From Flavobacteriales bacterium (GTDB lineage Bacteria > Bacteroidota > Bacteroidia > Flavobacteriales_D > Crocinitomicaceae): a stretch of 64,000 nt of DNA. Of this stretch, positions 222 through 12,698 are shown in pieces. The notes under the pieces were generated by a model. It saw only the letters and a list, made by a program, of their open reading frames with translations, did not search any database and was not told the origin of the DNA. Each line of letters begins with the position of its first letter. The first letter of the stretch is position 1. The stretch lies in the NCBI GenBank assembly GCA_009885545.1, contig VFKM01000012.1, positions 23,667-87,666 of the forward strand. Direction: 5' to 3'. The translations under genes were made by a program, and so were the position numbers.

Positions 222-250
222 ATCCTACTCTATCTTTGTGCTATTATCAA
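222..250 (-). promoter_or_regulatory. sigma70-like promoter (window consensus), leadered
   Basis: -35 TTGATA 245-250, N17, -10 TAGGAT 222-227. Upstream extension is AATCAGTTGATAAT. Confidence 0.6.
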
Positions 251-257
251 CTGATTA

Positions 258-449
258 TTAACTGCACCAGTAAAGAGTCGTCTTTGACTGGGTGTTGGCG
301 ATCTTGACAACAGGGCTCTTGTCAATTCCATATTGCCATTCTCTGCGAAAGAACGCAGATAGTCTATCACTCGGAACCACCTCAGACCTCTGAGCCTGAA
401 ACTGCCCATTCTCATCGTGAAATCCACCAGTTACTAGAACATTATGCAT
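258..449 (-). CDS. hypothetical protein (63 aa)
   Basis: ATG 447-449 is preceded by an AAGGAG SD and promoter 487-515. The competing frame 230..427 has neither. Confidence 0.6.
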   Translation of the reverse strand: MHNVLVTGGFHDENGQFQAQRSEVVPSDRLSAFFRREWQYGIDKSPVVKIANTQSKTTLYWCS

Positions 450-486
450 TTTTGTTATTCTCCTTTGTTTCCCTGTTGACTTACTG

Positions 487-515
487 ATCTTAGTTCATTC
501 GGATTCGATTATCAA
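487..515 (-). promoter_or_regulatory. sigma70-like promoter, leadered
   Basis: -35 TTGATA 510-515, N17, -10 TAAGAT 487-492. The 37-nt leader carries the conserved box CAGTAAGTCAACAGG and an AAGGAG SD. Confidence 0.7.
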
Positions 516-697
516 CTAATTGATTCTGAATCGGTTTCATCTTCGCTGAGAATTTTTAAATCAAAGTTCTTTCTGCATTCAGGAATCTCGCATGAAAAGA
601 AAGTATGCTTAAAATTTCCTGAGCGCATCGCTTTTACAATATTTACTCCTGAGCTGTTTGCTTCTTTACCGCAAGTATCACAAATTTTATTATCCAT
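512..697 (-). CDS. small Cys-rich (putative zinc-binding) protein (61 aa)
   Basis: Contains CDTC...C...C. Its TGA stop lies inside the next promoter's TTGATA. Confidence 0.6.
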   Translation of the reverse strand: MDNKICDTCGKEANSSGVNIVKAMRSGNFKHTFFSCEIPECRKNFDLKILSEDETDSESIS

Positions 698-717
698 AAT
701 TCCTTTTTTAAACTCTG

Positions 718-746
718 ATATTATCTGTTTGTTGTTTAGATATCAA
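718..746 (-). promoter_or_regulatory. sigma70-like promoter, leadered
   Basis: -35 TTGATA 741-746, N17, -10 TAATAT 718-723. The 20-nt leader contains AAAGGAA. Confidence 0.6.
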
Positions 747-803
747 GCAATTTGTTGGTGTGCTATTACGCTAAAGTCGGACCAGAGGTACTTGGTCCGG
801 TAA

Positions 804-1007
804 TTAATCGCTACTGTGATCCAGCGTTTCAGAGAGCTTATCCATTTTTGGGCCAGTTGTACTCTGGTTTCTCTTCAACTCTGTTACGCCAAGGCCAAAT
901 AATTTTATATATTTGGGTCTTACAACCGTTCCAGGTTGCTTTTGATTCATCAAGTCACAGTCTTGTCTCACTCTTATCATGGCTGCTGCTAGGCCCAGTA
1001 CCAACAA
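804..1007 (-). CDS. hypothetical protein (67 aa)
   Basis: TTG start lies 11 nt after an AAGGAA SD; ATG 980 is an alternative start. Downstream of promoter 1026-1054. Confidence 0.45.
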   Translation of the reverse strand: MLVLGLAAAMIRVRQDCDLMNQKQPGTVVRPKYIKLFGLGVTELKRNQSTTGPKMDKLSETLDHSSD

Positions 1008-1025
1008 AATTTCTCTTATTCCTTT

Positions 1026-1054
1026 ATCTTACTCCATCTACTTCCGATTATCAA
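1026..1054 (-). promoter_or_regulatory. sigma70-like promoter, leadered
   Basis: -35 TTGATA 1049-1054, N17, -10 TAAGAT 1026-1031. Confidence 0.65.
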
Positions 1055-1083
1055 CTGAATTATTTCTTTATTTTGAATTCACC

Positions 1084-1104
1084 AGGAGGCTATTGCAGCC
1101 TCCT
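1084..1104 (-). terminator. GC-rich hairpin after 1171..1404
   Basis: 8-bp stem AGGAGGCT/AGCCTCCT with a 5-nt loop. The U-tract is weak. Confidence 0.35.
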
Positions 1105-1170
1105 AAATTCGTGGCAACCACCCAGGTCATTCGTCTCTTTTGGAGAGCTAGATGAGCCGCCTGTACAATT

Positions 1171-1404
1171 CTAAATGATGGTTCCTTTATCTTGTGACAT
1201 GATCTCAAGAATGCGATCCATTGATGCAGCATCAAATCCAATAAGCAGTTTTCGTGCCATCGAAATAAACTTGATTGGAGGAGTACTAGTTGCTGCCTCA
1301 TCAGCATAATAGTTGCATTCGTCTAAAAGACAATATAGTTTCCTTGAAAGTCTCAATTCATTTCTAAATTGTGGAGAATCAGTTTCTGACTGATGGTGGC
1401 GCAT
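1171..1404 (-). CDS. hypothetical protein (77 aa)
   Basis: ATG has an AAGGAA SD 7 nt upstream and follows the stop of 1419..1682. The overlapping frame 1068..1307 lacks an RBS. Confidence 0.6.
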   Translation of the reverse strand: MRHHQSETDSPQFRNELRLSRKLYCLLDECNYYADEAATSTPPIKFISMARKLLIGFDAASMDRILEIMSQDKGTII

Positions 1405-1418
1405 GATATAATTCCTTG

Positions 1419-1682
1419 TTAATAATACATTACTGAATCCATTACCAGAATGAACTCTTCTGCGGTCAGAAGACCTCTCCTGCGATCTCTATTTGCATGA
1501 ATTAGAACTCCTACAACAAAGTTGCTTGCAGTGATTTGATTAGAATTTGCCTTTGTATATTGTTCTAATAGAAGTTTTGCTCTGTGAAAGAGTCTAGCAA
1601 CATCCTCTTTAATTCCAAATTCTTTACAAGAATTATAATAAACAAAGTTTTTATCAGTGCAAAACTCTTTCGGATTGAACAT
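1419..1682 (-). CDS. hypothetical protein (87 aa)
   Basis: Start trimmed to ATG 1680-1682, 7 nt after the -10 of promoter 1690-1718. The track start is the TTG of TTGATA. Confidence 0.65.
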   Translation of the reverse strand: MFNPKEFCTDKNFVYYNSCKEFGIKEDVARLFHRAKLLLEQYTKANSNQITASNFVVGVLIHANRDRRRGLLTAEEFILVMDSVMYY

Positions 1683-1689
1683 GAAATAA

Positions 1690-1718
1690 ACTTTATCAGT
1701 TATCGTATCGATTATCAA
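1690..1718 (-). promoter_or_regulatory. sigma70-like promoter, leaderless configuration
   Basis: -35 TTGATA 1713-1718, N17, -10 TAAAGT 1690-1695, N7, ATG. Confidence 0.65.
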
Positions 1719-1735
1719 CTAATAATATCAACAGT

Positions 1736-2206
1736 TCAGAAGGAGTGTTGTTCCTCTTTGACTGCCTTCAATAGATTATTGATTTGCTCAGTAGTTGCCG
1801 ATAGAAGCCTACCAGCTATATTGATAAAACCAGACTCTAACATGGCTTTCAGACAATCGTACCGATAGCCACAAGAATCTTCCCCATCATCATAGAATCC
1901 AGTGTCAACAAGAATCCTTCCATCAGGAAGCCTTAACATAAAGAAGGTTCCTTCTTTCAGTCTTTGAGTAGCAATTTGATAAGGACCAAATGTCTTAAAC
2001 TCTATTCCTGTAGGAATGTGCAAGTCAAAAGATGGAAATTCGATAATATCAATTCTCTTGCCAGAATCTGTTTCTTTTGTCTCAAGATATAACCATGTTT
2101 TGTATGTATATACCTTGTATGTTACAAAGGATTCTTTGGATTCCTCTCTGATCCAAAAGTGCCCACCATTGTCATCAAAACCAGCACTACTATAACAATA
2201 GCTCAT
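1736..2206 (-). CDS. hypothetical protein (156 aa)
   Basis: ORF track. ATG lies 5 nt after the -10 of promoter 2212-2240. Confidence 0.7.
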   Translation of the reverse strand: MSYCYSSAGFDDNGGHFWIREESKESFVTYKVYTYKTWLYLETKETDSGKRIDIIEFPSFDLHIPTGIEFKTFGPYQIATQRLKEGTFFMLRLPDGRILVDTGFYDDGEDSCGYRYDCLKAMLESGFINIAGRLLSATTEQINNLLKAVKEEQHSF

Positions 2207-2211
2207 GCCCT

Positions 2212-2240
2212 ACTGTATCCTTTCTTGAACTGATTATCAA
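2212..2240 (-). promoter_or_regulatory. sigma70-like promoter, leaderless configuration
   Basis: -35 TTGATA 2235-2240, N17, -10 TACAGT 2212-2217, N5, ATG 2204-2206. Confidence 0.7.
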
Positions 2241-2245
2241 CTGAT

Positions 2246-2539
2246 TCATACCAGTTCTGTTGGCATTGTCATTTCCTTCGTCCAGTATTGCATAAATACT
2301 GAATCATTCTCTGCTTGCATCTTGAGGGCAAGCTCGCACGATTTTTCACTTTGGTCATTGAATGTCCAACCATTGTCCCCCAAAGTTGCATAATCCATAA
2401 TAATAAGACTAGACATCTCTCCAAATAGAATATCAGAAATGTTTGCCAAAGCATCAAATTCTAATTGAGAAATCCAACGAACTTTGGCACAGATCATCAG
2501 AGAAATGAATGAATCGTGCAACCGCTTGTAGTGTTCCAT
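2246..2539 (-). CDS. hypothetical protein (97 aa)
   Basis: ORF track. ATG lies 7 nt after the -10 TAGGAT. Confidence 0.7.
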   Translation of the reverse strand: MEHYKRLHDSFISLMICAKVRWISQLEFDALANISDILFGEMSSLIIMDYATLGDNGWTFNDQSEKSCELALKMQAENDSVFMQYWTKEMTMPTELV

Positions 2540-2546
2540 GAATTAG

Positions 2547-2575
2547 ATCCTAACAGGTTGAAGATTGAATATCAA
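2547..2575 (-). promoter_or_regulatory. sigma70-like promoter, leaderless configuration
   Basis: -35 TTGATA 2570-2575, N17, -10 TAGGAT 2547-2552, N7, ATG 2537-2539. Confidence 0.75.
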
Positions 2576-2581
2576 GTGAAT

Positions 2582-3020: not shown

Positions 3021-3407
3021 CTAATGGCCCAAACTATCAAGAATCTCGTGTTGTTCAGCATGACAATTACAACACAATAATTGGCACTTATCAAGTTCTT
3101 TTTTCACACTATTAAAGTTTCTTGTCAAAAAACCAGAAATCGTAAATTCTTTTTCTAAAGGATTCAAATGGTGAAACACTAAAGCTTTTGGTGATTTATT
3201 GTAGCCACATATTTCACATTTTCCACCTTTATATTCTAGGAATTTTAATTTTGCTGCTCGCCTAGCATGACGATTCATACAAACTTGACAGCAATCAATT
3301 CTATCATTTTTGTGCTTATAAACAAACTGTTTTTTACAAAAATTACAATTTGTTAAAGTTCCAAGTTTTGAAGTTCCAGTTTTTCCGAATTTCAGTCCAC
3401 AAATCAT
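3021..3407 (-). CDS. HNH homing endonuclease
   Basis: Has CxxC pairs plus the HNH core FHHLNP...N...CCNCHAEQH. Confidence 0.85.
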   Translation of the reverse strand: MICGLKFGKTGTSKLGTLTNCNFCKKQFVYKHKNDRIDCCQVCMNRHARRAAKLKFLEYKGGKCEICGYNKSPKALVFHHLNPLEKEFTISGFLTRNFNSVKKELDKCQLLCCNCHAEQHEILDSLGH

Positions 3408-3413
3408 ATTTAG

Positions 3414-3442
3414 ATCCTATCATATTTAGAGTTGATTATCAA
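3414..3442 (-). promoter_or_regulatory. sigma70-like promoter, leaderless configuration
   Basis: -35 TTGATA 3437-3442, N17, -10 TAGGAT 3414-3419, N6, ATG 3405-3407. Confidence 0.75.
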
Positions 3443-3447
3443 CTGAT

Positions 3448-3666
3448 TTATAGTTCAAGAATGCCCTGGAACAATTCTTGCATTTTGGATCGATCAACTG
3501 AATACATTTCACCATATCCATTAAAACGCAAATTGCGAATCCATCCCTTGTGAATAAGGGAGTCCAAATCAGTAAGATTACTCTGAAATTTTCTCCTCAT
3601 AATGGAGGAAAGGAGAAAATCTGAACTAACAAGGTCCATCATCATTTCTACCTGAACTTTATTCAT
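3448..3666 (-). CDS. hypothetical protein (72 aa)
   Basis: ORF track. ATG lies 7 nt after the -10. Confidence 0.65.
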   Translation of the reverse strand: MNKVQVEMMMDLVSSDFLLSSIMRRKFQSNLTDLDSLIHKGWIRNLRFNGYGEMYSVDRSKMQELFQGILEL

Positions 3667-3673
3667 GTTTCAC

Positions 3674-3702
3674 ACCCTATCATGTTCTGAGTTGATTATC
3701 AA
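3674..3702 (-). promoter_or_regulatory. sigma70-like promoter, leaderless configuration
   Basis: -35 TTGATA 3697-3702, N17, -10 TAGGGT 3674-3679, N7, ATG 3664-3666. Confidence 0.7.
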
Positions 3703-4015
3703 TGAATTCCTTGATATATTCGGACGAAGTGACATCTGTATCATACCTAGCAAAATTGTACAAAGCAAAACAATTTTTGCTAGTTTTACCTCCAAACAAA
3801 CTCAAATAATGAGAATGATTTTTTAACAAATCATGCTTTGGATTCTCTTCAACAAGAATACGGATTTCTTTTCGGTATTTATCCGTAGTATCAACTGCAT
3901 CCTGCAAGTACCCAGGAAGCGACTCTGAAGAATACTTGTCTTCAATAACTTTTGAATAATCCTCGATTACAGAATAAGCATCAAGAGCCAAGATTAGCAG
4001 TTCGCCTTTATTCAT
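3680..4015 (-). CDS. hypothetical protein (111 aa)
   Basis: ORF track. Lies 4 nt after the stop of 4020..4316, suggesting an operon. Confidence 0.65.
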   Translation of the reverse strand: MNKGELLILALDAYSVIEDYSKVIEDKYSSESLPGYLQDAVDTTDKYRKEIRILVEENPKHDLLKNHSHYLSLFGGKTSKNCFALYNFARYDTDVTSSEYIKEFIDNQLRT

Positions 4016-4019: not shown

Positions 4020-4316
4020 TTATCTTTGTTCTTTTTTATGATTACAAAATTGGGGTTTCAGAAGAGCAATTGCTGGAGCCACTGTCGAAGATGTGGTATC
4101 CAGCAATTCCTTGCCGTCATTCTGAATTGAATATGCTATGGTCCTATCCACAAAAAATCCATGAGCCTCACTGAGTTTGTCTGTTACGAAAAACCCAGCA
4201 TGAATTACAAATTCAGATTCTTCATAATGGCAATCAAACCCATGAGCACCTGCCACTACCACTTCTGTATTTGGAGGATATTTTCTAAGTGCCTTTAACA
4301 AATCTTTAAGTTTCAT
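4020..4316 (-). CDS. hypothetical protein (98 aa)
   Basis: Start trimmed to ATG 4314-4316 (MKLKDLL), 6 nt after the -10 TATACT. The track's N-terminal extension reads through the promoter and inverted repeat. Confidence 0.6.
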   Translation of the reverse strand: MKLKDLLKALRKYPPNTEVVVAGAHGFDCHYEESEFVIHAGFFVTDKLSEAHGFFVDRTIAYSIQNDGKELLDTTSSTVAPAIALLKPQFCNHKKEQR

Positions 4317-4322
4317 ACAAAG

Positions 4323-4351
4323 AGTATAACAGATCGATTCTTGAATATCAA
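4323..4351 (-). promoter_or_regulatory. sigma70-like promoter, leaderless configuration
   Basis: -35 TTGATA 4346-4351, N17, -10 TATACT 4323-4328, N6, ATG. No SD-like sequence is present. Confidence 0.7.
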
Positions 4352-4466
4352 CTGATTTGAATGCTTCGACCAGCATCTGAGGTCTTATGGCTTTTTTATA
4401 GTTTATGCCATGACTTGAGCTAGCCTCGTTGGCTACTAAATTCAAATCAGTTGATATTCAAGAATC
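4336..4466. repeat. 27-bp perfect inverted repeat containing the promoter -35 region
   Basis: Arm 4336-4362 is the exact reverse complement of arm 4440-4466, with a 77-nt spacer. The mirrored plus-strand copy has TTGATA 4451-4456 but only a poor -10 (CAGGAC). Confidence 0.9.
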
Positions 4467-5271
4467 AACAATGCAGGACTCTTACGCGATCCTGCTTACG
4501 CTAGCAACCACTAGGACAATTTCCATCCTTTCCTCTGTTGGTTGTCAAAGGAACCTATCTCGTGGAATATAGACGATCAACAGCCACAAGAGGAATCATG
4601 CTCTGTTTCAAGTCTTAGCATGGCCAGAGGTACATATACTTGACTCTACAATATTCTAGTATTGCCCAAGCAAATAGCGTGATCTTCAGGGCTTTGGTTT
4701 AGCCAGCAGCACCGCCACCAAAAGGGGCCTGATTCTTTGGTCGCATGAATATCAGGAATCATCATGCGATCTTTACATTCTGATTGATTTTCTAATTATT
4801 GACTATATTGCAACTGGCCACGTTATAGTAATTTTGATCATCAGAAGCCAAATCTGTGTGGTTCGCCAGCAATCCTCCACCACAAGGGCGCAGTTTTAGT
4901 CGGATCACATGAAAGGAGTCTGCCTATCGCATCCATGTGATTTAACATTCTATCAGAATGATGTTGCACGATTTTCCCTAATGACTGGCCTTGACAGGAA
5001 AAAGATACAACCTGACAGAAGTCCTAGAGGCACCTTACCGATGCCCCATATAGGCGAGCCACACCTATTTGCCGCAGAAATCTCGCTTCCAATTCTTGCA
5101 TGGTGCGATTGAGACACTCAATCACTAGCAAGAACCATTCTGCCGCCCTGTAAAACACAATCAATTTATAAAAAACTCAATTATTTAGTGTTAGAGGTCT
5201 TAGGGGCCAGCACGAATTGGATTTGACATTTTTTATTATTCCTTTTTTGCTATCGCCCATCTGACTTACTG

Positions 5272-5300
5272 ATCTTACTCTATCCTGAACTGATTATCAA
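5272..5300 (-). promoter_or_regulatory. sigma70-like promoter facing an ORF-poor region
   Basis: -35 TTGATA 5295-5300, N17, -10 TAAGAT 5272-5277, followed by CAGTAAGTCAG. No ORF of 60 aa or more lies downstream on the minus strand until 4316. Confidence 0.6.
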
Positions 5301-5324
5301 CTGATTGATTTGGCATCCTATTTG

Positions 5325-5427: not shown

Positions 5428-5508
5428 CTATACGAGAGCGATCTTTGCAACTGCAAAGAACAGAGTAACAAATGCCGATGAGATCCACATACTTGCGAAA
5501 ATATCCAT
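5428..5508 (-). CDS. hydrophobic micropeptide (26 aa, MDIFASMWISSAFVTLFFAVAKIALV)
   Basis: Promoter 5533-5561 is followed by a 24-nt leader with an AAGGAG SD. Confidence 0.4.
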   Translation of the reverse strand: MDIFASMWISSAFVTLFFAVAKIALV

Positions 5509-5532
5509 TTTGCGTCTCCTTATCTGTGAGTG

Positions 5533-5561
5533 ATCTTACAGGAACCAAGAAGGAATATCAA
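5533..5561 (-). promoter_or_regulatory. sigma70-like promoter, leadered
   Basis: -35 TTGATA 5556-5561, N17, -10 TAAGAT 5533-5538. Confidence 0.7.
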
Positions 5562-5573
5562 GTGAATTATTTG

Positions 5574-5643
5574 CCTCCCATACAGGAGTTGAACCTGTCG
5601 TGGCTGGTTTAGAAGACCTGCCTGTGCATCCGGCACATGGGAG
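5574..5643 (-). ncRNA. tRNA-like RNA (possible tRNA-Arg UCU with non-canonical D-arm)
   Basis: - Acceptor stem is 7 bp (CTCCCAT/ATGGGAG).
- T-arm is ACAGG-TTCAACT-CCTGT.
- Anticodon loop is CTTCTAA on a 5-bp stem with one A.A mismatch.
- Variable loop is 5 nt.
- The D region is 3 nt short (GTGC-CGGAT-GCAC).
- No encoded CCA.
- Own promoter lies about 46 nt upstream. Confidence 0.4.
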
Positions 5644-5689
5644 TTAAAGAAAGTTATTCTAAACCACAGCATTTATGGTTTATTTCCCA

Positions 5690-5718
5690 ACTATACTTTA
5701 TTGTTCCTGTGATATCAA
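5690..5718 (-). promoter_or_regulatory. sigma70-like promoter upstream of the tRNA-like gene
   Basis: -35 TTGATA 5713-5718, N17, -10 TATAGT 5690-5695. Confidence 0.65.
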
Positions 5719-5730
5719 GTAAATATTCTA

Positions 5731-5841
5731 TTACAGTCCAACAATTGTATAAACAGCCATTGTTCCTGTTCCAATCGCAATTGCTGCAACAGAACAGAAG
5801 AACAAAAACAACAAAAAACTGACTGCTGCTGGTCCGGTCAT
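5731..5841 (-). CDS. hydrophobic micropeptide (36 aa, MTGPAAVSFLLFLFFCSVAAIAIGTGTMAVYTIVGL)
   Basis: Below the track cutoff. ATG lies 6 nt after the -10 of promoter 5848-5876. Confidence 0.4.
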   Translation of the reverse strand: MTGPAAVSFLLFLFFCSVAAIAIGTGTMAVYTIVGL

Positions 5842-5847
5842 GTATTC

Positions 5848-5876
5848 ACTATTACATAACTAGATACCAATATCAA
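5848..5876 (-). promoter_or_regulatory. sigma70-like promoter, leaderless configuration
   Basis: -35 TTGATA 5871-5876, N17, -10 AATAGT 5848-5853 (or TAATAG at N16), N6, ATG 5839-5841. Confidence 0.55.
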
Positions 5877-6014
5877 TTGAATTGTTGACGACTCCTAATA
5901 TCCATCTATTTGTTTTAACATTGCACTGGAGCCCGTTTAAGCCCCGCAAACTCTCCAGATGGACCAGAGCACCAACAAACAATTTGGAAGTCTTGGCGGG
6001 TCTCCTGGTGATTC

Positions 6015-6830: not shown

Positions 6831-6835
6831 GACTC

Positions 6836-6864: not shown

Positions 6865-6876
6865 AGAATTCTTGAA

Positions 6877-7047: not shown

Positions 7048-7054
7048 GAGTCAG

Positions 7055-7083
7055 ACTATATCAGTTCAAAGAGGGAATATCAA
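7055..7083 (-). promoter_or_regulatory. sigma70-like promoter, leaderless configuration
   Basis: -35 TTGATA 7078-7083, N17, -10 TATAGT 7055-7060, N7, ATG. Confidence 0.7.
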
Positions 7084-7107
7084 TGAATTATCGGTGCTTT
7101 ATGAGTT

Positions 7108-7347: not shown

Positions 7348-7634
7348 GATGACGCCCAACCAAAAAACAACCATTTTCCATCAGAAACCTTGATGCAACC
7401 TGCTGGCCCCCATTTATCATCAATACGTCTGTCATCTGATGACAAAAGCCTGCGAGCGCATTGAGATGGAGTTTCACCCTCATTTGGTTGAATCATAATA
7501 AAACTGCTTTTTTCTGCGATGGTGCCAGTATATCCTCTGTGACCATACTCAAATAAAGCATCATCAACTAAATCTGAAAAGGCTTCTTTCGCTGTCAGAC
7601 CAGACCCATTGTTACAAAACTGATTTGCTCCCAT
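7344..7634 (-). CDS. hypothetical protein (96 aa)
   Basis: ORF track. An AAGGAAG SD lies in the 21-nt leader of promoter 7656-7684. Confidence 0.7.
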   Translation of the reverse strand: MGANQFCNNGSGLTAKEAFSDLVDDALFEYGHRGYTGTIAEKSSFIMIQPNEGETPSQCARRLLSSDDRRIDDKWGPAGCIKVSDGKWLFFGWASS

Positions 7635-7655
7635 ATGCTTCCTTTGCTGTTTGTG

Positions 7656-7684
7656 ATCTTACTAGAATTACTCTTGAATATCAA
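7656..7684 (-). promoter_or_regulatory. sigma70-like promoter, leadered
   Basis: -35 TTGATA 7679-7684, N17, -10 TAAGAT 7656-7661. Confidence 0.7.
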
Positions 7685-7695
7685 CTGATTTATGG

Positions 7696-8136
7696 TTATT
7701 TCTTGCAACCTCGCTCATCAATTTCAACAAAAGTAAAATTCCAATCGCCTTCGCAAGATTTGGCTCTTTGTTGCCATTCTTTGACTTCTTCAAGAGAGGC
7801 AGGAGGCTCTGCACAGCCACCACCAGGACAGGTATGGCATGATCCATCCTCTGATTGGAAATCAACTTCAACAACAATCCAATCAGAGTGATTGTCAAGA
7901 TCATTTGTTTTGATATGTTTATTAAAACAAGGACCGTAAACTTCTCCAGTTTCGTCATCAGTCTCCATGGCAACAATACCATAGTAAATTTCTGATTTAG
8001 ATACTACATGGTTATAGGCATCGCAGCCATGATACAAATCCCCTGGTTTTACATTAACAGCCCATTCCATCAGAGCGCGACGACCTGGTTTATCAAACCA
8101 CTGTTCGCCTAGAGGGCCTTTATATAATTGATTCAT
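7696..8136 (-). CDS. hypothetical protein (146 aa) with a KPGDLYHG motif and a Cys cluster
   Basis: ORF track. It carries the same GDLY motif as the AT-rich-arm family. ATG lies 7 nt after the -10. Confidence 0.7.
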   Translation of the reverse strand: MNQLYKGPLGEQWFDKPGRRALMEWAVNVKPGDLYHGCDAYNHVVSKSEIYYGIVAMETDDETGEVYGPCFNKHIKTNDLDNHSDWIVVEVDFQSEDGSCHTCPGGGCAEPPASLEEVKEWQQRAKSCEGDWNFTFVEIDERGCKK

Positions 8137-8143
8137 GTGTTAG

Positions 8144-8172
8144 ATCCTATCAGGTTATGAGTCGAATATCAA
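8144..8172 (-). promoter_or_regulatory. sigma70-like promoter, leaderless configuration
   Basis: -35 TTGATA 8167-8172, N17, -10 TAGGAT 8144-8149, N7, ATG 8134-8136. Confidence 0.75.
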
Positions 8173-8399
8173 TCGAATTGCCTAGAGGTTTTCTCAAGGA
8201 AACCTTCATCATCTGAGAAAAATCCATCTTCTTCGTCTTCGTCTTGTTCTTCATCTGCAATTTCTTCAAGAAAACCATCAAGCTCTGGAGCTAAATCCTT
8301 TGAATCAATGAAATTGTATAATAGCTTTAGGATCGTCTTGTCAGTCCAAGAATTTGAATGAGTAAGGACAGCATTCTCTGCATCTAGATTTTTAGTCAT
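8169..8399 (-). CDS. acidic hypothetical protein (76 aa)
   Basis: ORF track. Has a D/E-rich tail, and its TGA stop lies inside the next TTGATA. Confidence 0.65.
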   Translation of the reverse strand: MTKNLDAENAVLTHSNSWTDKTILKLLYNFIDSKDLAPELDGFLEEIADEEQDEDEEDGFFSDDEGFLEKTSRQFD

Positions 8400-8441: not shown

Positions 8442-8867
8442 TTAAGCTAACAGGTCCAAAAGGTCTTTGCCTCCCTGATAGATTTTATGAATATGATTAG
8501 TAATTTCCTCTTGTAAAAGAAGAACAACACTCGACAAAGTACCTTCATTGCTTTCCAGTATGCCAAAATTACTATCAATTACATATCCTCTTGCGAAGGA
8601 AACATAACGAATTGTTGTAACAGAATGGTCGCCAAATAATTTAGTATTAAATTCAATAAGCCTATCAAGGGGCATGATTTTCGGGCTTGATAGACATCCA
8701 ATCTTTTCCATTTGTGATCTCCATTTTTCTACATTAGGTTGATAGGGGATATCAAGAAGAACTACTGAGTATTTCATTTGTGCCCCTGTCGAGTAACGAT
8801 CTCGCTTCGCGAAATTAAAAGTTTCGTGCTCATCCACTAAAGCTTCAGAGGCTGGATGGGAACCCAT
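8442..8867 (-). CDS. hypothetical protein (141 aa)
   Basis: Start trimmed to ATG 8865-8867, 19 nt after the -10, with an AAAGGGAA SD. Confidence 0.6.
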   Translation of the reverse strand: MGSHPASEALVDEHETFNFAKRDRYSTGAQMKYSVVLLDIPYQPNVEKWRSQMEKIGCLSSPKIMPLDRLIEFNTKLFGDHSVTTIRYVSFARGYVIDSNFGILESNEGTLSSVVLLLQEEITNHIHKIYQGGKDLLDLLA

Positions 8868-8886
8868 GTTCCCTTTTGATGTCCTA

Positions 8887-8915
8887 AGTATACTTGATTC
8901 CCCCCAAAATATCAA
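8887..8915 (-). promoter_or_regulatory. sigma70-like promoter, leadered
   Basis: -35 TTGATA 8910-8915, N17, -10 TATACT 8887-8892. Confidence 0.65.
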
Positions 8916-8925
8916 GTATTATTTA

Positions 8926-9117
8926 TCAGCTAGCAGATACCATCTGCCGTCCACCCTTTCGGTTCTTCTTCTTGATTCTTCGATTGATCCTCCTTGACAT
9001 TTTTTCAGCATAGGCAGCAAGAGCGCCAGGATTGTCATTCCGAAACTTCTTTTGACTTCCCGACTTGAGATGCTTTGAAACCTTGCCACGTTGAGTTGAA
9101 CACTTTGGTCCTGCCAT
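8926..9117 (-). CDS. highly basic small protein (63 aa)
   Basis: ORF track. K/R-rich (RRINRRIKKKNRKGGR). Confidence 0.6.
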   Translation of the reverse strand: MAGPKCSTQRGKVSKHLKSGSQKKFRNDNPGALAAYAEKMSRRINRRIKKKNRKGGRQMVSAS

Positions 9118-9158
9118 TTTATTATCCTAACCTTTCTTAGTGACCTGTTGACTTATTG

Positions 9159-9187
9159 ATCTTACTTGGTTTCTGTCTGATTATCAA
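9159..9187 (-). promoter_or_regulatory. sigma70-like promoter, leadered
   Basis: -35 TTGATA 9182-9187, N17, -10 TAAGAT 9159-9164. The 41-nt leader carries the conserved box CAATAAGTCAACAGG. Confidence 0.7.
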
Positions 9188-9407
9188 CTAATTGTTCTGG
9201 AGAAAATAAATCTATCATTTTTCCTCCAACATAATCATGAAGATAGTACTCGGCATCCATAACAAATGCAAGCTCTTCTCCCTCGACTTTATCGATTTCT
9301 CCTTCGCCACCAAAAATTGCTTTTGCAGCTTCTTCCGGTGAGTCTGCTTCTACTACAACTCTTCCTGATGACATGATAGGAACCCACATGAAGTATTTCT
9401 TTTTCAT
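9162..9407 (-). CDS. hypothetical protein (81 aa)
   Basis: ORF track. Abuts the stop of 9408..9659 with a 0-nt gap. Confidence 0.65.
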   Translation of the reverse strand: MKKKYFMWVPIMSSGRVVVEADSPEEAAKAIFGGEGEIDKVEGEELAFVMDAEYYLHDYVGGKMIDLFSPEQLVDNQTETK

Positions 9408-9659
9408 TTATGATACTCCATTTGAAAAATGGAGTTCAATCATCTTCCTACAGAATTCCTCGAGTGCTCCATCTTGAAAATAGAAATTATTGTCAGTTGC
9501 ATCCACAAATCTTCCAAGATAGGATGCAGCTTCCTTGCCATGTAGATATTCACAAAGCTCATAACAGGCTTCATAGACTTCTGATTGAACTCCCTCTTCG
9601 TTCGCTAGTGCAGCCAGAAGATGTTGAAATACTGACTCAAGTGCTGCTCGGTTCTTCAT
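9408..9659 (-). CDS. hypothetical protein (83 aa)
   Basis: ORF track. ATG lies 7 nt after the -10. Confidence 0.65.
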   Translation of the reverse strand: MKNRAALESVFQHLLAALANEEGVQSEVYEACYELCEYLHGKEAASYLGRFVDATDNNFYFQDGALEEFCRKMIELHFSNGVS

Positions 9660-9666
9660 GTGATTG

Positions 9667-9695
9667 ATCCTATCAGGTTATTGGGCGATTATCAA
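9667..9695 (-). promoter_or_regulatory. sigma70-like promoter, leaderless configuration
   Basis: -35 TTGATA 9690-9695, N17, -10 TAGGAT 9667-9672, N7, ATG 9657-9659. Confidence 0.75.
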
Positions 9696-9937
9696 TCAAT
9701 TTGCGATGATTCTTTTAGAATGAGAGCCTCAGAATAAACATTCTGAAATTCTATTCCAAGCTCATCCGACATAAGCATCATATTTGCAAGGAAATTCGCC
9801 ATGGAATCTCCTATGAATGCATTTTCCATACCCTCTTCTCGCACAAATGAATCCATGTGCTTTGCTGCGGATTTAACAAAATCCATTGCACCAGGGTAAG
9901 AAGGTTGTTCAGATGCTAGTTTGGCAAACTTATTCAT
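9692..9937 (-). CDS. small helical protein, MazG-like helix motif (81 aa)
   Basis: Motif MMLMSDELGIEFQ. Overlaps the upstream gene by 8 nt. Confidence 0.6.
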   Translation of the reverse strand: MNKFAKLASEQPSYPGAMDFVKSAAKHMDSFVREEGMENAFIGDSMANFLANMMLMSDELGIEFQNVYSEALILKESSQID

Positions 9938-10734: not shown

Positions 10735-10932
10735 TCAATCCCAACAGTCCATCTCTCTGTCATCAATCTGATCCTCGGACCATTCAGAAATAAGGTTGCG
10801 TTCGTCATTGACGGCACCACCGCGAGGAATCCTAGAATCCTTCATAGGGCCTCCCTTGCAGCTAAGAATAGCTGAAAGAGTTTGAGCCCACCGCATTGCC
10901 TTAACTGAAGCCCTGAGAGTTGAGTTCTTCAT
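10735..10932 (-). CDS. hypothetical protein (65 aa)
   Basis: ORF track. ATG lies 7 nt after the -10. Confidence 0.55.
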   Translation of the reverse strand: MKNSTLRASVKAMRWAQTLSAILSCKGGPMKDSRIPRGGAVNDERNLISEWSEDQIDDREMDCWD

Positions 10933-10939
10933 GTGATTG

Positions 10940-10968
10940 ATCCTATATTAGTTATGGATTGGTTTCAA
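10940..10968 (-). promoter_or_regulatory. sigma70-like promoter, leaderless configuration
   Basis: -35 TTGAAA 10963-10968, N17, -10 TAGGAT 10940-10945, N7, ATG 10930-10932. Confidence 0.65.
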
Positions 10969-10977
10969 CAGATTGTT

Positions 10978-11145
10978 TCAATAATCGTTTAGCTCTGGCT
11001 CCCAAGCGACTAAATTGCCTTCGCAATCAGTTGATACTCCTGTATCAATTACTAGTTCACCATTTTCATATGAAAATGCAGGCTCTAATCCAGATTCTCT
11101 TAGAAGAATAAGCAACTCTTCCAGAGTAGAAAGCGGCTTTGTCAT
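10978..11145 (-). CDS. hypothetical protein (55 aa)
   Basis: Start trimmed to ATG 11143-11145 (MTKPLSTLEE), 7 nt after the -10. Confidence 0.55.
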   Translation of the reverse strand: MTKPLSTLEELLILLRESGLEPAFSYENGELVIDTGVSTDCEGNLVAWEPELNDY

Positions 11146-11152
11146 GTAATTG

Positions 11153-11181
11153 ATCCTATCAGGTTTCAGATTGAATATCAA
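11153..11181 (-). promoter_or_regulatory. sigma70-like promoter, leaderless configuration
   Basis: -35 TTGATA 11176-11181, N17, -10 TAGGAT 11153-11158, N7, ATG. Confidence 0.75.
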
Positions 11182-11411
11182 GCAATTCGCTTGTAGGGAT
11201 AGAGGTGCTCATTCTTTTTGATAATTGCATGAAATGCCTTTCCGAGAGAGGCAGAGTCGAGAAGGACTCGCATAGTCTCCCATGTCACTCCAGCATATTC
11301 ATAAATGCCACCGCTCTTGTAGGTTGCGGTCAGCACCTCTCCCTTGGGATTGAATCCAAGAGAAGAAATCATTGTAGACTCGGGAAGTTGAATCGTCATT
11401 GTCTGTTCCAT
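11178..11411 (-). CDS. KTSC-domain protein (77 aa)
   Basis: Pattern ISSLGF...L.ATYKSGGIYEYAGV...SLGKAF...IKK..YPY matches the KTSC domain. Confidence 0.7.
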   Translation of the reverse strand: MEQTMTIQLPESTMISSLGFNPKGEVLTATYKSGGIYEYAGVTWETMRVLLDSASLGKAFHAIIKKNEHLYPYKRIA

Positions 11412-11418
11412 GAATCAG

Positions 11419-11447
11419 AGTTTAGCCGATACAGGAACGAATAACAA
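11419..11447 (-). promoter_or_regulatory. sigma70-like promoter, leaderless configuration
   Basis: AATCAG-TTGTTA 11442-11447, N17, -10 TAAACT 11419-11424, N7, ATG 11409-11411. Confidence 0.6.
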
Positions 11448-11605
11448 CTGATTAATTTGGCATCAATGTTGCATCATAGGATTTCTTCTATTTTGATTCA
11501 ACTCTATAATGCAACAACTGTGCCAAGATAAAATTAAAAATAGAAACACCAAAAGCCAAGAATCCATTTTTGGACCTCGGCTTTGGCATGGTTGTTGATA
11601 TTCGG

Positions 11606-11632
11606 ATTGGGCCAGCATTGCACTGGCCCAAT
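11606..11632 (-). terminator. 10-bp GC-rich hairpin after 11641..12399
   Basis: ATTGGGCCAG-cattgca-CTGGCCCAAT lies 9 nt after the stop. There is no clear U-tract. Confidence 0.4.
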
Positions 11633-11640
11633 CCCTGCTT

Positions 11641-12399
11641 TCAGTTGCTCTCGCTAGCGTCTTCTACATCCTGAGCAGCATACTTCGCCAGGAGATCAGC
11701 AATGCTGCGAGTCTCTCCTTCTCCCTCTTCGCTCACAGGAGCCTCTGTAGCGGGCTCTGATGCCTCTACCTCAACAGAATCCATCGAAACCTCTAGAGCC
11801 TCCAGAACAGCCTCCTGTGCAATCTCAGGTGCCTCTACAGCGGGTTCTGATGGCTCCATCTCTGCAACTGTCTGATCGGATGGCTCCTCGGTCACTTCGA
11901 CGACATCGGACTCCATTGCAGCCTCTACCACCGCTGCGGCAGGAACCGGAGGGCCTTCGACCCTCGTTGGAGAAACAGCCTTGACTGCCTTGCGAGCAAC
12001 CTTATCTGCCTCCTTCTTCGCAGCAATCTCCGCTACCTCTGCCTCAGTGCGAGGCTTGATTCCGCGGGTTCCTACGGGAACCGGCGTAGCCGATGGCTGA
12101 AAGAAGACCTCCTCTCCGAATGCCTGGAGAAGCTCCATGGCTCCGACCTTCAAGGGTTCCTTACCCTCTCCTGCATTGAGGGTAAGGATCGTGCGGCCAG
12201 TGCGCCCTCGGTGAGCAAACCGAGACATCACTACGAAGGTCTTGGTCTTGCCGCTCTTGGAAACCCGAATGCGAGTTCCCTCAGTTGCGTTGCGAACAAA
12301 AGTTGCCATATTGGCGAGAAGATCAGCGTTCATTTCGGTTCCCTTTCCTACGTTGACAGTTGCGGTTGACTTGACTTCAGATGCGTTCTTGTTTGCCAT
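11641..12399 (-). CDS. GC-rich protein with a G(R/K)xG-loop beta domain and a long acidic Pro/Glu/Ala/Val tail (252 aa)
   Basis: ORF track. One 60-nt line sampled by hand gives 55% GC. The N-terminal segment FVVMSRFAHRGRTGRTILTL is paralogous to 34152..34595. Confidence 0.75.
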   Translation of the reverse strand: MANKNASEVKSTATVNVGKGTEMNADLLANMATFVRNATEGTRIRVSKSGKTKTFVVMSRFAHRGRTGRTILTLNAGEGKEPLKVGAMELLQAFGEEVFFQPSATPVPVGTRGIKPRTEAEVAEIAAKKEADKVARKAVKAVSPTRVEGPPVPAAAVVEAAMESDVVEVTEEPSDQTVAEMEPSEPAVEAPEIAQEAVLEALEVSMDSVEVEASEPATEAPVSEEGEGETRSIADLLAKYAAQDVEDASESN

Positions 12400-12405
12400 G
12401 TTCTT

Positions 12406-12434
12406 GTTATACTTCTTTCTGTTTCAATTATCAA
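12406..12434 (-). promoter_or_regulatory. sigma70-like promoter, leaderless configuration
   Basis: -35 TTGATA 12429-12434, N17, -10 TATAAC 12406-12411, N6, ATG 12397-12399. Confidence 0.7.
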
Positions 12435-12486
12435 CTGATTATTTATTGCTTCCCTAGAGCCAACATGGCACAGGGATTGCTAGAGT

Positions 12487-12663
12487 TCAAATATACCCAA
12501 GCTCCAAAAGCCACGAAGGATTCCCGTGGATACATCGCCCGTCAGGCTCTACAGTACATCCATCAGTAGCCTTTGCGATGCCATCAAAGGACCATCGCTC
12601 TAGCGTCTTGAGGCTCGGCTGCTTGGTTGTTCTCGGTGCCCTGGTTCCTGCGCTTGTCTTCAT
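12487..12663 (-). CDS. small protein with a C-terminal ATDGC-VEPDG-C-HG-PSWLL motif (58 aa)
   Basis: Start set at the second ATG (12661-12663), 6 nt after the -10. I recall the motif from many small phage and bacterial proteins but cannot name the family. Confidence 0.55.
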   Translation of the reverse strand: MKTSAGTRAPRTTKQPSLKTLERWSFDGIAKATDGCTVEPDGRCIHGNPSWLLELGYI

Positions 12664-12669
12664 ACCCAT

Positions 12670-12698
12670 GTTGTACCTCAATGGCTTTGGTTTATCAA
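12670..12698 (-). promoter_or_regulatory. sigma70-like promoter, leaderless configuration
   Basis: -35 TTGATA 12693-12698, N17, -10 TACAAC 12670-12675. Confidence 0.55.

Follow-up and report, generated by a model that had tools for sequence, protein, structure and literature searches.

Why does one short element recur before so many genes of this phage, and does it place the start of their mRNAs at the start codon itself? The window, meaning the whole 64,000-nt stretch of DNA that was analysed, comes from an uncultured, very divergent T4-like phage. The most likely reading, to which we assign a probability of roughly 0.7, is that the elements act as strong early promoters of host sigma70 type and that about 20 of them would make leaderless mRNAs.

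Enrichment and anatomy of the motif

The strict pattern TTGATAWTC-N14-TANNNT has 18 matches, every one of them on the minus strand; 100 dinucleotide shuffles, none of which reached 18, put the expectation at 0.10. For TTGATA-N17-TANNNT the minus strand has 24 matches, where Markov shuffles give an expectation of 1.2. A scan of the whole stretch with a two-block position weight matrix (PWM), as the earlier note had proposed, returned 40 minus-strand and 8 plus-strand sites at ≥10 bits, compared to 0-5 in shuffles, and a direct-repeat search independently recovered the promoter cassettes as families D1-D11, with the ATG inside several of them. The -35 box, TTGATA, is embedded in aatcagTTGATA(a/t)tc and is followed by a 17-nt spacer (16 nt in a few copies) and the -10 box, TAnnnT, frequently with an extended -10 TGn. 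Of the small early genes, about two-thirds have a copy in front of them, and so do rIIA, an RNA ligase gene, a tRNA and the tmRNA. They often begin 0-10 nt from the preceding stop codon; at the ORF ends 512, 8169, 9692, 11178 and 22579 the upstream TGA does lie inside TTGATA, as had been described.

The earlier note had counted about 45 promoters and had placed one before nearly every gene in 1-12.7 kb and before at least 15 genes further right. The repeated motif holds up, but both figures were too generous: about 34 sites are solid (≥14 bits) and up to 48 are reached with weak ones, and about 26 of about 40 genes in that interval are preceded by a copy. Further right, the sites at 14735, 15953, 19700, 20938, 22191, 24588, 26848, 27276, 31940, 32799, 37174 and 45616 were re-derived, but the one at 35922, also listed as a promoter, is weak, its second box being TGGATT and not TAnnnT.

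Two classes of distance to the start codon

In class lists curated by hand from the PWM hits, the hexamer-to-ATG distance (d) is bimodal, in agreement with the two promoter classes proposed previously: 21 sites fall at 5-8 nt (class 1), none of the curated promoter sites at 9-16 nt, and the others at ≥17 nt, mostly with Shine-Dalgarno (SD) sequences of AAGGA/AAGGAG type. Class 1 comprises one site at 5 nt, 10 at 6, nine at 7 and one at 8, and TGn is present in 14/21.

Features are on the minus strand unless marked (+). The 5-nt site is 2204..2246 (TTGATA 2240, TACAGT 2217-2212, ATG 2206, 156 aa), and the 8-nt site, with TGn, belongs to rIIA (19689..19734; TTGATA 19728, TAATCT 19705-19700, ATG 19691). 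Sites at 7 nt with TGn are 1680..1724 (TTGATA 1718-1713, TAAAGT 1695-1690, ATG 1682, 87 aa), 2537..2581 (TTGATA 2575, TAGGAT 2552-2547, ATG 2539, 97 aa), 3664..3708 (TTGATA 3702, TAGGGT 3679-3674, ATG 3666, 72 aa), 7045..7089 (TTGATA 7083, TATAGT 7060-7055, ATG 7047, 56 aa) and three whose TTGATA holds the upstream TGA, namely 8134..8178 (TTGATA 8172, TAGGAT 8149-8144, ATG 8136, 146 aa), 9657..9701 (TTGATA 9695, TAGGAT 9672-9667, ATG 9659, 83 aa) and 11143..11187 (TTGATA 11181, TAGGAT 11158-11153, ATG 11145, 55 aa); 10930..10974 (TTGAAA 10968, TAGGAT 10945-10940, ATG 10932, 65 aa) and 11409..11453 (TTGTTA 11447, TAAACT 11424-11419, ATG 11411, 77 aa) share this distance. At 6 nt, TGn accompanies 3405..3448 (TTGATA 3442, TAGGAT 3419-3414, ATG 3407, 128 aa), 4314..4357 (TTGATA 4351, TATACT 4328-4323, ATG 4316, 98 aa), 5839..5882 (TTGATA 5876, AATAGT 5853-5848, ATG 5841, a 36-aa hydrophobic peptide), 32790..32833 (TTGATA 32827, TATATT 32804-32799, ATG 32792, 205 aa) and, with 16-nt spacers, 20929..20971 (TTGATA 20965, TATGAT 20943-20938, ATG 20931, 125 aa) and 22182..22224 (TTGATA 22218, TATGAT 22196-22191, ATG 22184, 121 aa). 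The same distance is found at 12397..12440 (TTGATA 12434, TATAAC 12411-12406, ATG 12399, 252 aa), at 15944..15987 (TTGATA 15981, TATAAT 15958-15953, ATG 15946, 78 aa), at 37168..37211 (+) before an RNA ligase 1-like gene (TTGAAA 37174, TAGGAT 37197-37202, ATG 37209, 397 aa), and at 12661..12704 (TTGATA 12698, TACAAC 12675-12670), where the sequence reads ATGGGT ATG and the second ATG, 12663, is the one at 6 nt.

About 25 sites had been assigned to this leaderless type; the class stands, but its firm membership is 21, with three more that have a weak -35. These are 6828..6865, before a Thg1-like gene (TGtTATAAT, hexamer 6841-6836, 5 nt, ATG 6830, poor -35 cTTGGTt), 26840..26876 (TTGCTT-N17-TATAAG, hexamer 26853-26848, 5 nt, ATG 26842) and 45616..45654 (+) (TTGTTG 45616-N17-TACATA, 7 nt, ATG 45652).

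In class 2, which has about 13 copies, a leader of 17-45 nt separates the promoter from the start codon (one leader has 83 nt), and most of these leaders carry an SD of AAGGAG type. TAAGAT is the hexamer at 447..521 (TTGATA 515, holding the upstream TGA, hexamer 492-487, 37-nt leader with AAGGAG, ATG 449), 978..1060 (TTGATA 1054, hexamer 1031-1026, 45-nt leader, ATG 980, start uncertain), 5227..5306 (TTGATA 5300, hexamer 5277-5272, 42-nt leader, then a 9-codon ORF and about 780 nt without ORFs), 5506..5567 (TTGATA 5561, hexamer 5538-5533, 24-nt leader with TAAGGAG, ATG 5508, 26 aa), 7632..7690 (TTGATA 7684, hexamer 7661-7656, 21-nt leader with AAGGA, ATG 7634), 9115..9193 (TTGATA 9187, hexamer 9164-9159, 41-nt leader, ATG 9117) and 14713..14768 (TTGATA 14762, 16-nt spacer, hexamer 14740-14735, 19-nt leader with AAGGA, ATG 14715). 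Other hexamers occur at 136..256 (TTGATA 250, TAGGAT 227-222, 83-nt leader, ATG 138), 695..752 (TTGATA 746, TAATAT 723-718, 20-nt leader with AAGGA, ATG 697), 8865..8921 (TTGATA 8915, TATACT 8892-8887, 19-nt leader, ATG 8867), 24562..24622 (TTGAAA 24616, TATTCT 24593-24588, 23-nt leader with AAGGAAGG, ATG 24564), 27255..27309 (TTGATA 27303, 16-nt spacer, TATAGT 27281-27276, 18-nt leader with AGGAG, ATG 27257) and 31915..31974 (TTGATA 31968, TATTGT 31945-31940, 22-nt leader with TAAGGAG, ATG 31917).

Promoters of the same type precede two RNA genes. At 5643..5724 (TTGATA 5718, TATAGT 5695-5690) the element is followed, after about 46 nt, by tRNA-Arg (5573-5643), and at 58191..58233 (TTGATA 58227-58222, 17 nt, CATACT 58204-58199) the tmRNA acceptor stem begins with A 58191, 7 nt past the hexamer. 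The tmRNA 5' end can serve as an internal calibration of the start offset, albeit a soft one, because the 5' end of a tmRNA is normally a processed one and because another possible hexamer, TATCAT, is present 3 nt upstream.

The second box and the class 1 start codons

The short distance in class 1 might instead mean that the second box is an SD. At sites picked on the -35 block alone (n=34) and read with the spacer fixed at 17 nt, the hexamer has T at position 1 in 25/34, A at position 2 in 29/34 and T at position 6 in 24/34, and the TGn position upstream is G in 18/34; an SD profile is absent from these 34 sites, the information having no peak at the GG that an SD needs. Moreover, 13/21 class 1 hexamers, including TATAGT, TATACT, TATGAT (twice), TAATCT, TAAACT, TAAAGT, TATATT, TATAAT and TACAGT, are not SD-like and cannot pair with the anti-SD, whereas the other 8/21 (TAGGAT/TAGGGT) double as well-placed SDs. 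The lack of space for an SD in class 1 counts for little by itself, since the phage is SD-poor overall, with only about 30% of its ORFs having an SD core of ≥4 nt. Based on these data, the assignment of the first box as a -35 and the second as a -10, as the earlier note had argued, is supported, every sequence-level test made here favouring it. The proposed split of hexamers by class was also recovered, with TAAGAT in 0/21 class 1 versus 7/11 class 2 sites (Fisher p=1e-4) and TAGGnT in 8/21 versus 0/11 (p=0.03).

The base at -1 of the ATG is a pyrimidine in 20/21 class 1 genes versus 60/125 other genes (p=2.5e-5), and C in 13/21 versus 27/125 (p=3.5e-4). E. coli RNA polymerase prefers to start 7-8 nt past the -10, with a purine at +1 and a pyrimidine at -1, and the class 1 arrangement, with its -1 pyrimidine and the ATG at positions 7/8, fits this usual start-site rule. 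The start codons themselves are backed by several observations: an in-frame, SD-led alternative within 30 codons exists in only 2/21 class 1 genes, the rIIA N-terminus aligns with >30 homologues in agreement with ATG 19691, and an independent gene caller (Logan contig) also chose ATG 19691 and ATG 15946. A precedent for the class 1 signature is found in Deinococcus-Thermus, where leaderless genes are marked by a -10 adjoining the ORF (PMC12340547).

Relatives, recognition and translation

In four relatives (L123-L126; rIIA 41-43% identical), the promoter reads aat..TTCA(T/A)AAt-N17-TGnTAnnnT, and its hexamers are mostly not SD-like. There, d is 6 in six genes and in two more at the second ATG, one called start has d=4 and one -2, none of the starts falls at 7-14, and the remainder lie at ≥15 with SDs. 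The promoter-to-ATG geometry in these sequences is thus kept despite a -35 box that differs from TTGATA. Together with the distance, the -1 pyrimidine and the tmRNA offset, this geometry argues that the class 1 ATG is at the predicted +1, as previously suggested; at these approximately 21 copies, the A of the ATG would be the first base that polymerase transcribes, and ribosomes would load through the 5'-terminal AUG.

Which factor reads the promoters is a separate matter. Region 2 is the only sigma region present in the phage sigma and its close homologues, no Pfam region 4 being found in any of them, and host sigma is favoured over the phage sigma for this reason. Another factor, acting instead or in addition, may nevertheless take part in recognition: a G is near-universal in primary-sigma -35 elements, and the relatives' TTCAAA/TTCATA boxes do not have it. 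We continue to favour host sigma70-type recognition, with early expression predicted.

Terminators were not enriched (7 terminator-like sites versus 8.9 expected), and therefore read-through transcripts must exist, on which each class 1 gene would also be an internal cistron. TAGGAT, whose AGGA is 8 nt from the ATG, may function there as a weak SD and thereby have a dual use, and such a role would explain its restriction to the short class. The main route need not be leaderless translation, as the host may initiate without SDs on internal cistrons, in keeping with the low SD use of this phage.

How far the arrangement is new depends on which part is considered. T4-type phages are known to carry repeated early promoters, named PeSLs, in front of ORFans (PMC2839356), and the Thermus myovirus phiYS40 is known to have leaderless middle/late genes (PMC3594737). 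The claim of novelty accordingly narrows to the leaderless layout within the T4-like group: one near-identical promoter before most of the small early genes, with leaderless mRNAs predicted for about twenty of them, appears to be an organisation unreported in the T4-like phage literature.

Promoter repeats and the identity of the second box

Counting TTGATA-N-TANNNT arrangements on the minus strand yielded 24 copies with a 17-nt spacer, where about 1.2 are expected, along with 2, 7, 3, and 3 copies for spacers of 15, 16, 18, and 19 nt, respectively, indicating that the stereotyped promoter described in the earlier note is real. The longer pattern TTGATAWTC-N14-TANNNT occurred 18 times, always on the minus strand, compared to 0.10 expected from dinucleotide-preserving shuffles, and a two-block weight matrix applied at ≥10 bits detected 40 minus-strand and 8 plus-strand sites, compared to 0-5 in shuffled sequence. 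A repeat search also recovered the promoters, as families of direct repeats 32-56 nt long, and in several families the repeat runs through the ATG. The promoter positions that had been reported for the right-hand part of the window were reproduced save one, the promoter listed at 35922 being weak. The overall tallies need some adjustment: the figure of ~45 promoters was slightly generous, with ~34 sites being solid, the ~25 promoters of leaderless type comprise 21 firm and 3 weak cases, and within 1-12.7 kb, where nearly every gene was said to have a promoter, the proportion is about two-thirds. The stop codon of the preceding gene falls within the -35 box or no more than ~10 nt away, so the entire intergenic space is promoter, and gene packing around these promoters is extreme.

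The -35 hexamer is TTGATA, a 5/6 match to TTGACA, in nearly all copies (variants being TTGAAA and TTGTTA), and together with the 17 ± 1 spacer and a TAnnnT -10 element this is the composition of a sigma70-type promoter, at which initiation is predicted. To avoid circularity in characterizing the second box, 34 sites were picked by the -35 block alone (A[AT]TnnnTTGATA[AT][TA]), and the downstream profile was then computed. Information peaked 18, 19, and 23 nt past the -35 hexamer (T in 25/34, A in 29/34, and T in 24/34), and a G was found two positions ahead of the second hexamer at 18/34 sites (TGn). The resulting profile, TGnTAnnnT, is that of an extended -10 without a GG-centred Shine-Dalgarno (SD) profile, which upholds the original identification of this box as a -10. 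The box is equally conserved at class 2 promoters, which have a separate AAGGAG and in which 17-45 nt separate the box from the ATG. At class 1 promoters, where the ATG follows 5-8 nt past the hexamer, 13 of the 21 hexamers are unable to pair with the anti-SD (TATAGT, TATACT, TATGAT twice, TAATCT, TAAACT, TAAAGT, TATATT, TATAAT, TATAAC, TACAGT, TACAAC, and AATAGT).

These observations bear directly on an arrangement that the earlier note had itself set against its reading, in which TTGATAAT/TTGATATT is the true -10, transcription starts ~7 nt later, and the second box, with TAGGAT as its SD, is a ribosome-binding site. It draws on the 5/6 match of GATAAT to TATAAT and on TAGGAT setting AGGA 8 nt from the ATG in seven genes. 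However, nothing is conserved 17 nt upstream of TTGATA, and the information upstream of the aatcag that precedes TTGATA is ~0, so TTGATAAT has no -35 of its own. Moreover, conservation of the second box falls on T1, A2, and T6 and not on a GG, its conservation is the same in class 2 and most class 1 boxes cannot pair with the anti-SD, and in related phages the corresponding boxes carry TGn and are mostly not SD-like. Given the profile, the upstream sequence, and class 2, we regard this arrangement as very improbable.

Distance between the -10 hexamer and the start codon

The distance d between the end of the -10 hexamer and the ATG is sharply bimodal across the sites in the window, bearing out the division into two classes. 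The -10 ends 5-8 nt before the start codon, the spacing taken as the mark of a leaderless gene, at 21 sites, with d equal to 5 at one, 6 at ten, 7 at nine, and 8 at one of them. No site in the window has d = 9-16, and the sites outside class 1 have d of at least 17, usually with AAGGA, AAGGAG, or TAAGGAG. An SD before the ATG is present in most class 2 copies and absent in the 21 class 1 copies, whose geometry leaves no space for one between the predicted transcription start site (TSS) and the ATG; 8/21 of their hexamers contain AGG, however, and could themselves serve as an SD on read-through RNA. E. coli RNA polymerase starts mostly at the 7th, then the 8th base past the -10, preferring a pyrimidine-purine step at -1/+1, and distances of 6 and 7 place the A of the ATG at the 7th and 8th base past the hexamer. 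A pyrimidine precedes the ATG in 20/21 class 1 genes compared to 60/125 other predicted genes (Fisher p=2.5e-5), and a C in 13/21 compared to 27/125 (p=3.5e-4). The TGn extension is likewise commoner in class 1 (14/21) than in class 2 (2/11; p=0.023). The proposed split in hexamer usage also held, with TAGGnT found in 8/21 class 1 and 0/11 class 2 promoters (p=0.03), and TAAGAT in 0/21 and 7/11, respectively (p=1e-4). The class 2 promoters at 487-449, 5272-5229, and 9159-9117 (minus strand) share a leader start beyond the -10, TAAGATCA(G/A)TAAGTCA(A/G)(C/A)(A/T)GG, which corresponds to direct-repeat family D6.

The search for class 1 starts considered ATG only, so the presence of ATG in 21/21 follows from the search; promoters followed at d=5-8 by an ORF beginning with GTG or TTG were not seen. 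Several observations suggest that the class 1 ATGs are genuine starts. The N-terminus of rIIA (17604-19691, minus strand; start ATG 19691), MAKLNIESPEIESSG, aligns residue by residue with the N-termini of more than 30 homologues, the gene caller applied to the Logan contig picks ATG 19691 and ATG 15946, and an in-frame ATG, GTG, or TTG with an SD core occurs within 30 codons downstream in only 2/21 class 1 genes. An SD core of at least 4 nt precedes only ~30% of the predicted ORFs in the window, and the host therefore probably tolerates SD-less initiation. In such an SD-poor phage the lack of room for an SD is weak evidence alone, and the case rests on the geometry. Among all predicted genes, especially right of 23 kb, TTAAAT, ATTAAA, and TAAATA are enriched 4-6-fold 1-8 nt from the ATG, and could represent a late-promoter-like element or an AT-rich translation signal.

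A one-piece tmRNA (57837-58191, minus strand; Rfam RF00023, 88 bits), missed by ARAGORN, offers a comparison with a non-coding 5' end. A 58191, the first base of the tmRNA, is paired in the acceptor stem and lies 7 nt past the hexamer CATACT of a TTGATA-N17 promoter, with a T at -1, the same geometry as in the d=7 genes. This internal calibration of the promoter +1 is soft, given that RNase P ordinarily trims tmRNAs and that 3 nt upstream there is an alternative hexamer, TATCAT. The tmRNA encodes the tag ANDNATSAPYAVAA*, one that none of the GTDB species genomes shares.

The nearest rIIA homologues are only 41-43% identical, and four loci bearing them (L123-L126) were taken for comparison. These loci carry a stereotyped promoter of their own, aat..TTCA(T/A)AAt-N17-TGnTAnnnT, whose -35 sequence differs from that in the window, and d is again bimodal: exactly 6 in six genes and 6 to the second ATG in two more, with one called start at 4, one at -2, none at 7-14, and the rest at 15 or more with SDs. 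Hexamers of the short class are mostly not SD-like (TAGTGT, TACTGT, TATGGT, TACAGT, TAAGCT, and TATCCT), and a pyrimidine occupies -1 in 8/8. That the geometry persists although the sequence has turned over is the strongest argument for the spacing being functional. An ATGnnnATG directly past the promoter occurs at 12669/12663 in the window, at 1246 in L124, and at 647 in L125, three cases where ~0.5 are expected by chance; in each, gene callers take the first ATG, which directly adjoins the hexamer (d=0), and the second lies at d=6, like the ATGs of the leaderless class. The rIIA gene itself is class 1 in the window and SD-led in all four relatives, and because the class differs between orthologues, it belongs to the cassette and not to the gene. 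In a more distant rIIA-bearing relative (L127, JGI 3300072490; 37% identical), the regions 2900-9100 and 15200-17000 contain an intergenic repeat cassette of another kind, in which a stem-loop of 10-12 bp stands ahead of (c/t)a(t/c)aggag and the ATG. This cassette resembles the promoter-early stem-loop (PeSL) cassettes of T4-type coliphages and shows that regulatory cassettes turn over between lineages.

Read-through and promoter recognition

Intergenic terminators and PeSL-type stem-loops are absent from the window: terminator-like hairpins are not enriched (7 compared to 8.9 expected) and none coincide with the cassettes. Transcripts therefore run on downstream, and class 1 genes are also internal cistrons. 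The explanation we favor, with a probability of roughly 0.7, is that these are strong sigma70-type early promoters, ~20 of which yield leaderless mRNAs. The host primary-sigma holoenzyme would recognize the -35 and extended -10, and at the class 1 copies would start at the A of the ATG, producing an mRNA whose 5' end is the start codon. TAGGAT would then act as a -10 in the DNA and as a weak SD in read-through RNA, and the status of class 1 genes as internal cistrons would explain the bias toward TAGGnT in class 1 and TAAGAT in class 2.

The same read-through could support a different account, in which the promoters are real and the close spacing is a by-product of compaction and of PeSL-like recombinational copying of a promoter-plus-ATG cassette. 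Proteins would then come mainly from polycistronic transcripts by internal initiation, either SD-independent or assisted by TAGGAT, and 5'-AUG transcripts would be minor. In keeping with this account, the genes are not separated by terminators, the host presumably initiates without SDs given how SD-poor the phage is, the enrichment of TAGGAT falls at just the position in which an SD would help, the class is not conserved among rIIA orthologues, and direct-repeat cassettes do include the ATG and first codons, as with 9651-9673, which is 100% identical to 10924-10946. Compaction alone, however, predicts neither the 6-7 nt optimum, the empty gap at 9-16, nor the pyrimidine at -1 in 20/21 genes, and relatives show the distance of 6 again even though their cassettes and those in the window have no sequence in common. 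Untranslatable transcripts would also be a waste, yet these promoters are the best matches in the window. We therefore consider the by-product account unlikely.

A separate question is whether the promoters are read by unmodified host sigma70 or by a phage-directed form of the polymerase, which would make them middle rather than immediate-early promoters; this concerns only the reader and is compatible with leaderless transcripts. Candidate readers would be the phage sigma factor (40367-41440, minus strand), which resembles regions 2-3 of RpoD/SigA and not T4 gp55, or a MotA/AsiA-like appropriator recognizing the 15-bp aatcagTTGATAatc box. The conserved upstream box, at ~15 bp, is longer than a -35 hexamer, and the relatives' TTCAAA/TTCATA lacks the canonical -35 G, so an additional recognition factor besides host sigma is possible. 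The phage also encodes the sigma factor itself, and TATAAATA late promoters are not enriched (6 compared to 8.3 expected), leaving that protein without defined targets. Nevertheless, region 4, the usual reader of the -35, was not detected in the phage sigma or its close homologues (Pfam region 2 only; region 4 at E=0.21), of which there are only ~5 among 5.8 billion proteins, and its apparent lack makes the phage sigma a poor candidate for reading the -35. In addition, 17-nt spacing with TGnTAnnnT is the classic geometry of a primary sigma, the promoters serve genes typical of the T4 early set (rIIA, small ORFans, and tRNAs), and the unmodified host enzyme must transcribe something first, with no other promoter family evident in the region. 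T4 early promoters are likewise conserved well past their hexamers. Taken together, a phage-directed reader seems quite unlikely.

Beyond the favored explanation, a more far-reaching proposal is that an entire uncultured clade of T4-like phages, comprising this phage and the L123-L125 lineages, uses a leaderless early regulon for take-over of the host. Host translation initiation would be altered early, for example by acting on IF3, S1, or the 3' end of the 16S rRNA, in line with a proposal for phiYS40, such that 5'-AUG phage messages were favored over SD-led host messages, and the dual-coded -10, TAGGAT, would keep the same genes translated from read-through RNA. We put this forward as speculation that we would not expect to hold.

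Local inverted repeats were absent within the cassettes, with the exception of an inverted copy of the -35 block (ATTCAAATCAGTTGATATTCAAGAATC) that forms a perfect 27-bp repeat at 4336-4362/4440-4466, with 77 nt between its arms, and that could represent an RNA hairpin or a scar of cassette recombination. It is located at the end of a stretch of ~780 nt (4440-5265, minus strand) containing no ORF longer than 67 aa, with predicted transcription from a class 2 promoter at 5300. This stretch sits between the two tRNA genes, its G+C content is 42-46% compared to 33.6% for the 64-kb window, and its fold z-score is -3.2, with 0/20 shuffles folding equally well. Rfam gave no match for it even at E<=1, a search of phage DNA found nothing similar, and we consider it a candidate large structured non-coding RNA.

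The phage, known systems and significance

Transcription of the left 36 kb of the window is nearly all on the minus strand. The gene content, which includes rIIA, rIIB, a T4-type portal, RNA ligases, a Thg1-like gene, two tRNAs, the tmRNA, and the sigma factor, identifies the phage, as far as its genes tell, as T4-like and very divergent. A megablast of 1-12.7 kb against 50,697 phage records gave zero nucleotide matches, and portal and rIIA share just 23-38% identity with any cultured phage, the hosts of the nearest ones being scattered. An identical rIIA protein is encoded on a 157,908-bp NCBI contig and two Logan contigs. An rIIA-based search of IMG/VR found no related loci, and no relative with >85% identity for a comparison of gene content was found in the phage, IMG/VR, or viral and metagenome contig searches. 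The exact 15-mer AATCAGTTGATAATC yielded nothing in viral contigs beyond single chance matches, the cassette pattern gave 0 matches in viral contigs and single chance matches in metagenome contigs, and multiple promoters of the window type were present on no fetched locus except the phage's own Logan contigs.

Several individual genes are also unusual. The portal protein (51936-55292, minus strand; 1118 aa) is ~2x the usual length, with the portal profile matching mainly residues 675-910, and the extra region (251-675) in part weakly resembles a phage 'methylase' ORF; it may be an insertion or fusion. Homing-endonuclease-like genes of HNH/GIY-YIG types (58923-59933, minus strand, and 62615-63463, plus strand; group I intron endonuclease family, 63 bits) sit amid structural genes. 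The Thg1-like tRNA-His guanylyltransferase gene (6015-6830, minus strand; Pfam 108 bits) adjoins the tRNA genes, tRNA-Arg(TCT) at 5573-5643 and tRNA-Ile(TAT) at 2958-3030, the latter overlapping the 3' end of a cysteine-rich 128-aa ORF (3021-3407) that matched no Pfam family.

With regard to known promoter types, the T4 middle promoter replaces the -35 by a MotA box, (a/t)(a/t)TGCTT(t/c)A, whose centre is at -30, 11-13 bp from the -10. The promoters in the window differ from these MotA-dependent promoters, their box being TTGATA at the canonical 17-nt spacing. A single phage mRNA beginning at its AUG has a precedent in lambda, where the cI mRNA from PRM, in work by Shean and Gottesman (1992, as cited in PMC12340547), reportedly starts at the A of the AUG and is translated without an SD, but that case concerns one regulatory gene of a temperate phage and is not repeated gene by gene. 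In phiKZ there are no leaderless transcripts.

The closest counterpart among T4-type phages is the PeSLs of coliphages RB49 and phi1, which comprise ~50 near-consensus sigma70-like early promoters, concentrated in the hyperplastic region and mostly directly upstream of small ORFans, with a G/C-rich stem-loop attenuator inside and an SD closing the cassette ahead of the ATG; excision or insertion of ORFans through mini-circles is described for them (Arbiol et al. 2010, PMC2839356). The cassettes described here likewise consist of a recurring early promoter of sigma70-like type placed immediately ahead of ORFans in the hyperplastic region, with an upstream stop codon at the 5' edge and a length sufficient for a recombination substrate. 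In contrast with PeSLs, they carry no stem-loop or terminator signal, ~21 copies appear to have no leader at all and have no SD at the 3' end, and the sequence is unrelated (TTGATA/TAnGAT compared to the E. coli consensus); it is the more distant relative, L127, that does have the stem-loop and SD form. For leaderless transcription in a phage, the nearest parallel is phiYS40, a Thermus thermophilus myovirus for which many leaderless middle and late transcripts are described (Sevostyanova et al. 2007, as summarised in PMC3594737). Going by that summary, both are large myoviruses with many promoters placed such that the mRNA would start at the start codon, but the phiYS40 host belongs to Deinococcus-Thermus, where leaderless genes are common, its leaderless class is middle and late whereas the genes here look early and the phage T4-like, and its 5' ends were mapped whereas those here are predicted from sequence. 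A -10 adjacent to the ORF is, in the account of PMC12340547, which cites Zheng 2011 and de Groot 2014, an accepted leaderless signature in Deinococcus-Thermus and also in Actinobacteria. That element, as in class 1, is a TANNNT in which T1, A2, and T6 do not vary, placed a few bp ahead of the start codon; it cannot be replaced by a ribosome-binding site, and a -35 box 17 bp upstream raises its output (PMC12340547). It differs in serving cellular genes and mostly lacking a -35, whereas the copies here are phage-borne repeats each with a stereotyped -35.

The claim of novelty made in the earlier note thus stands in part. Repeated early promoters and leaderless phage genes are each known, the former already in T4-type phages, but a full-text literature search found no such arrangement in T4-like phages, and the predicted leaderless early arrangement in a T4-like phage would be new, pending TSS confirmation. 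Leaderless translation is considered marginal in most Gram-negative hosts. For annotation, the three ATGnnnATG cases, in which the geometry points to the second ATG, serve as a warning that start prediction based on SDs would put starts in the wrong place in phages of this kind. If the favored explanation is true, one hexamer acts as both -10 and SD, and the phage provides a natural matched set of promoters, with the same recognition elements with and without leaders, with which the competition between leaderless and SD-led initiation during infection could be studied. If class 1 transcripts do start at the ATG, then a T4-like phage would depend on leaderless translation for ~20 of its genes, rIIA and an RNA ligase gene among them, and the host must be able to translate 5'-AUG mRNAs adequately.
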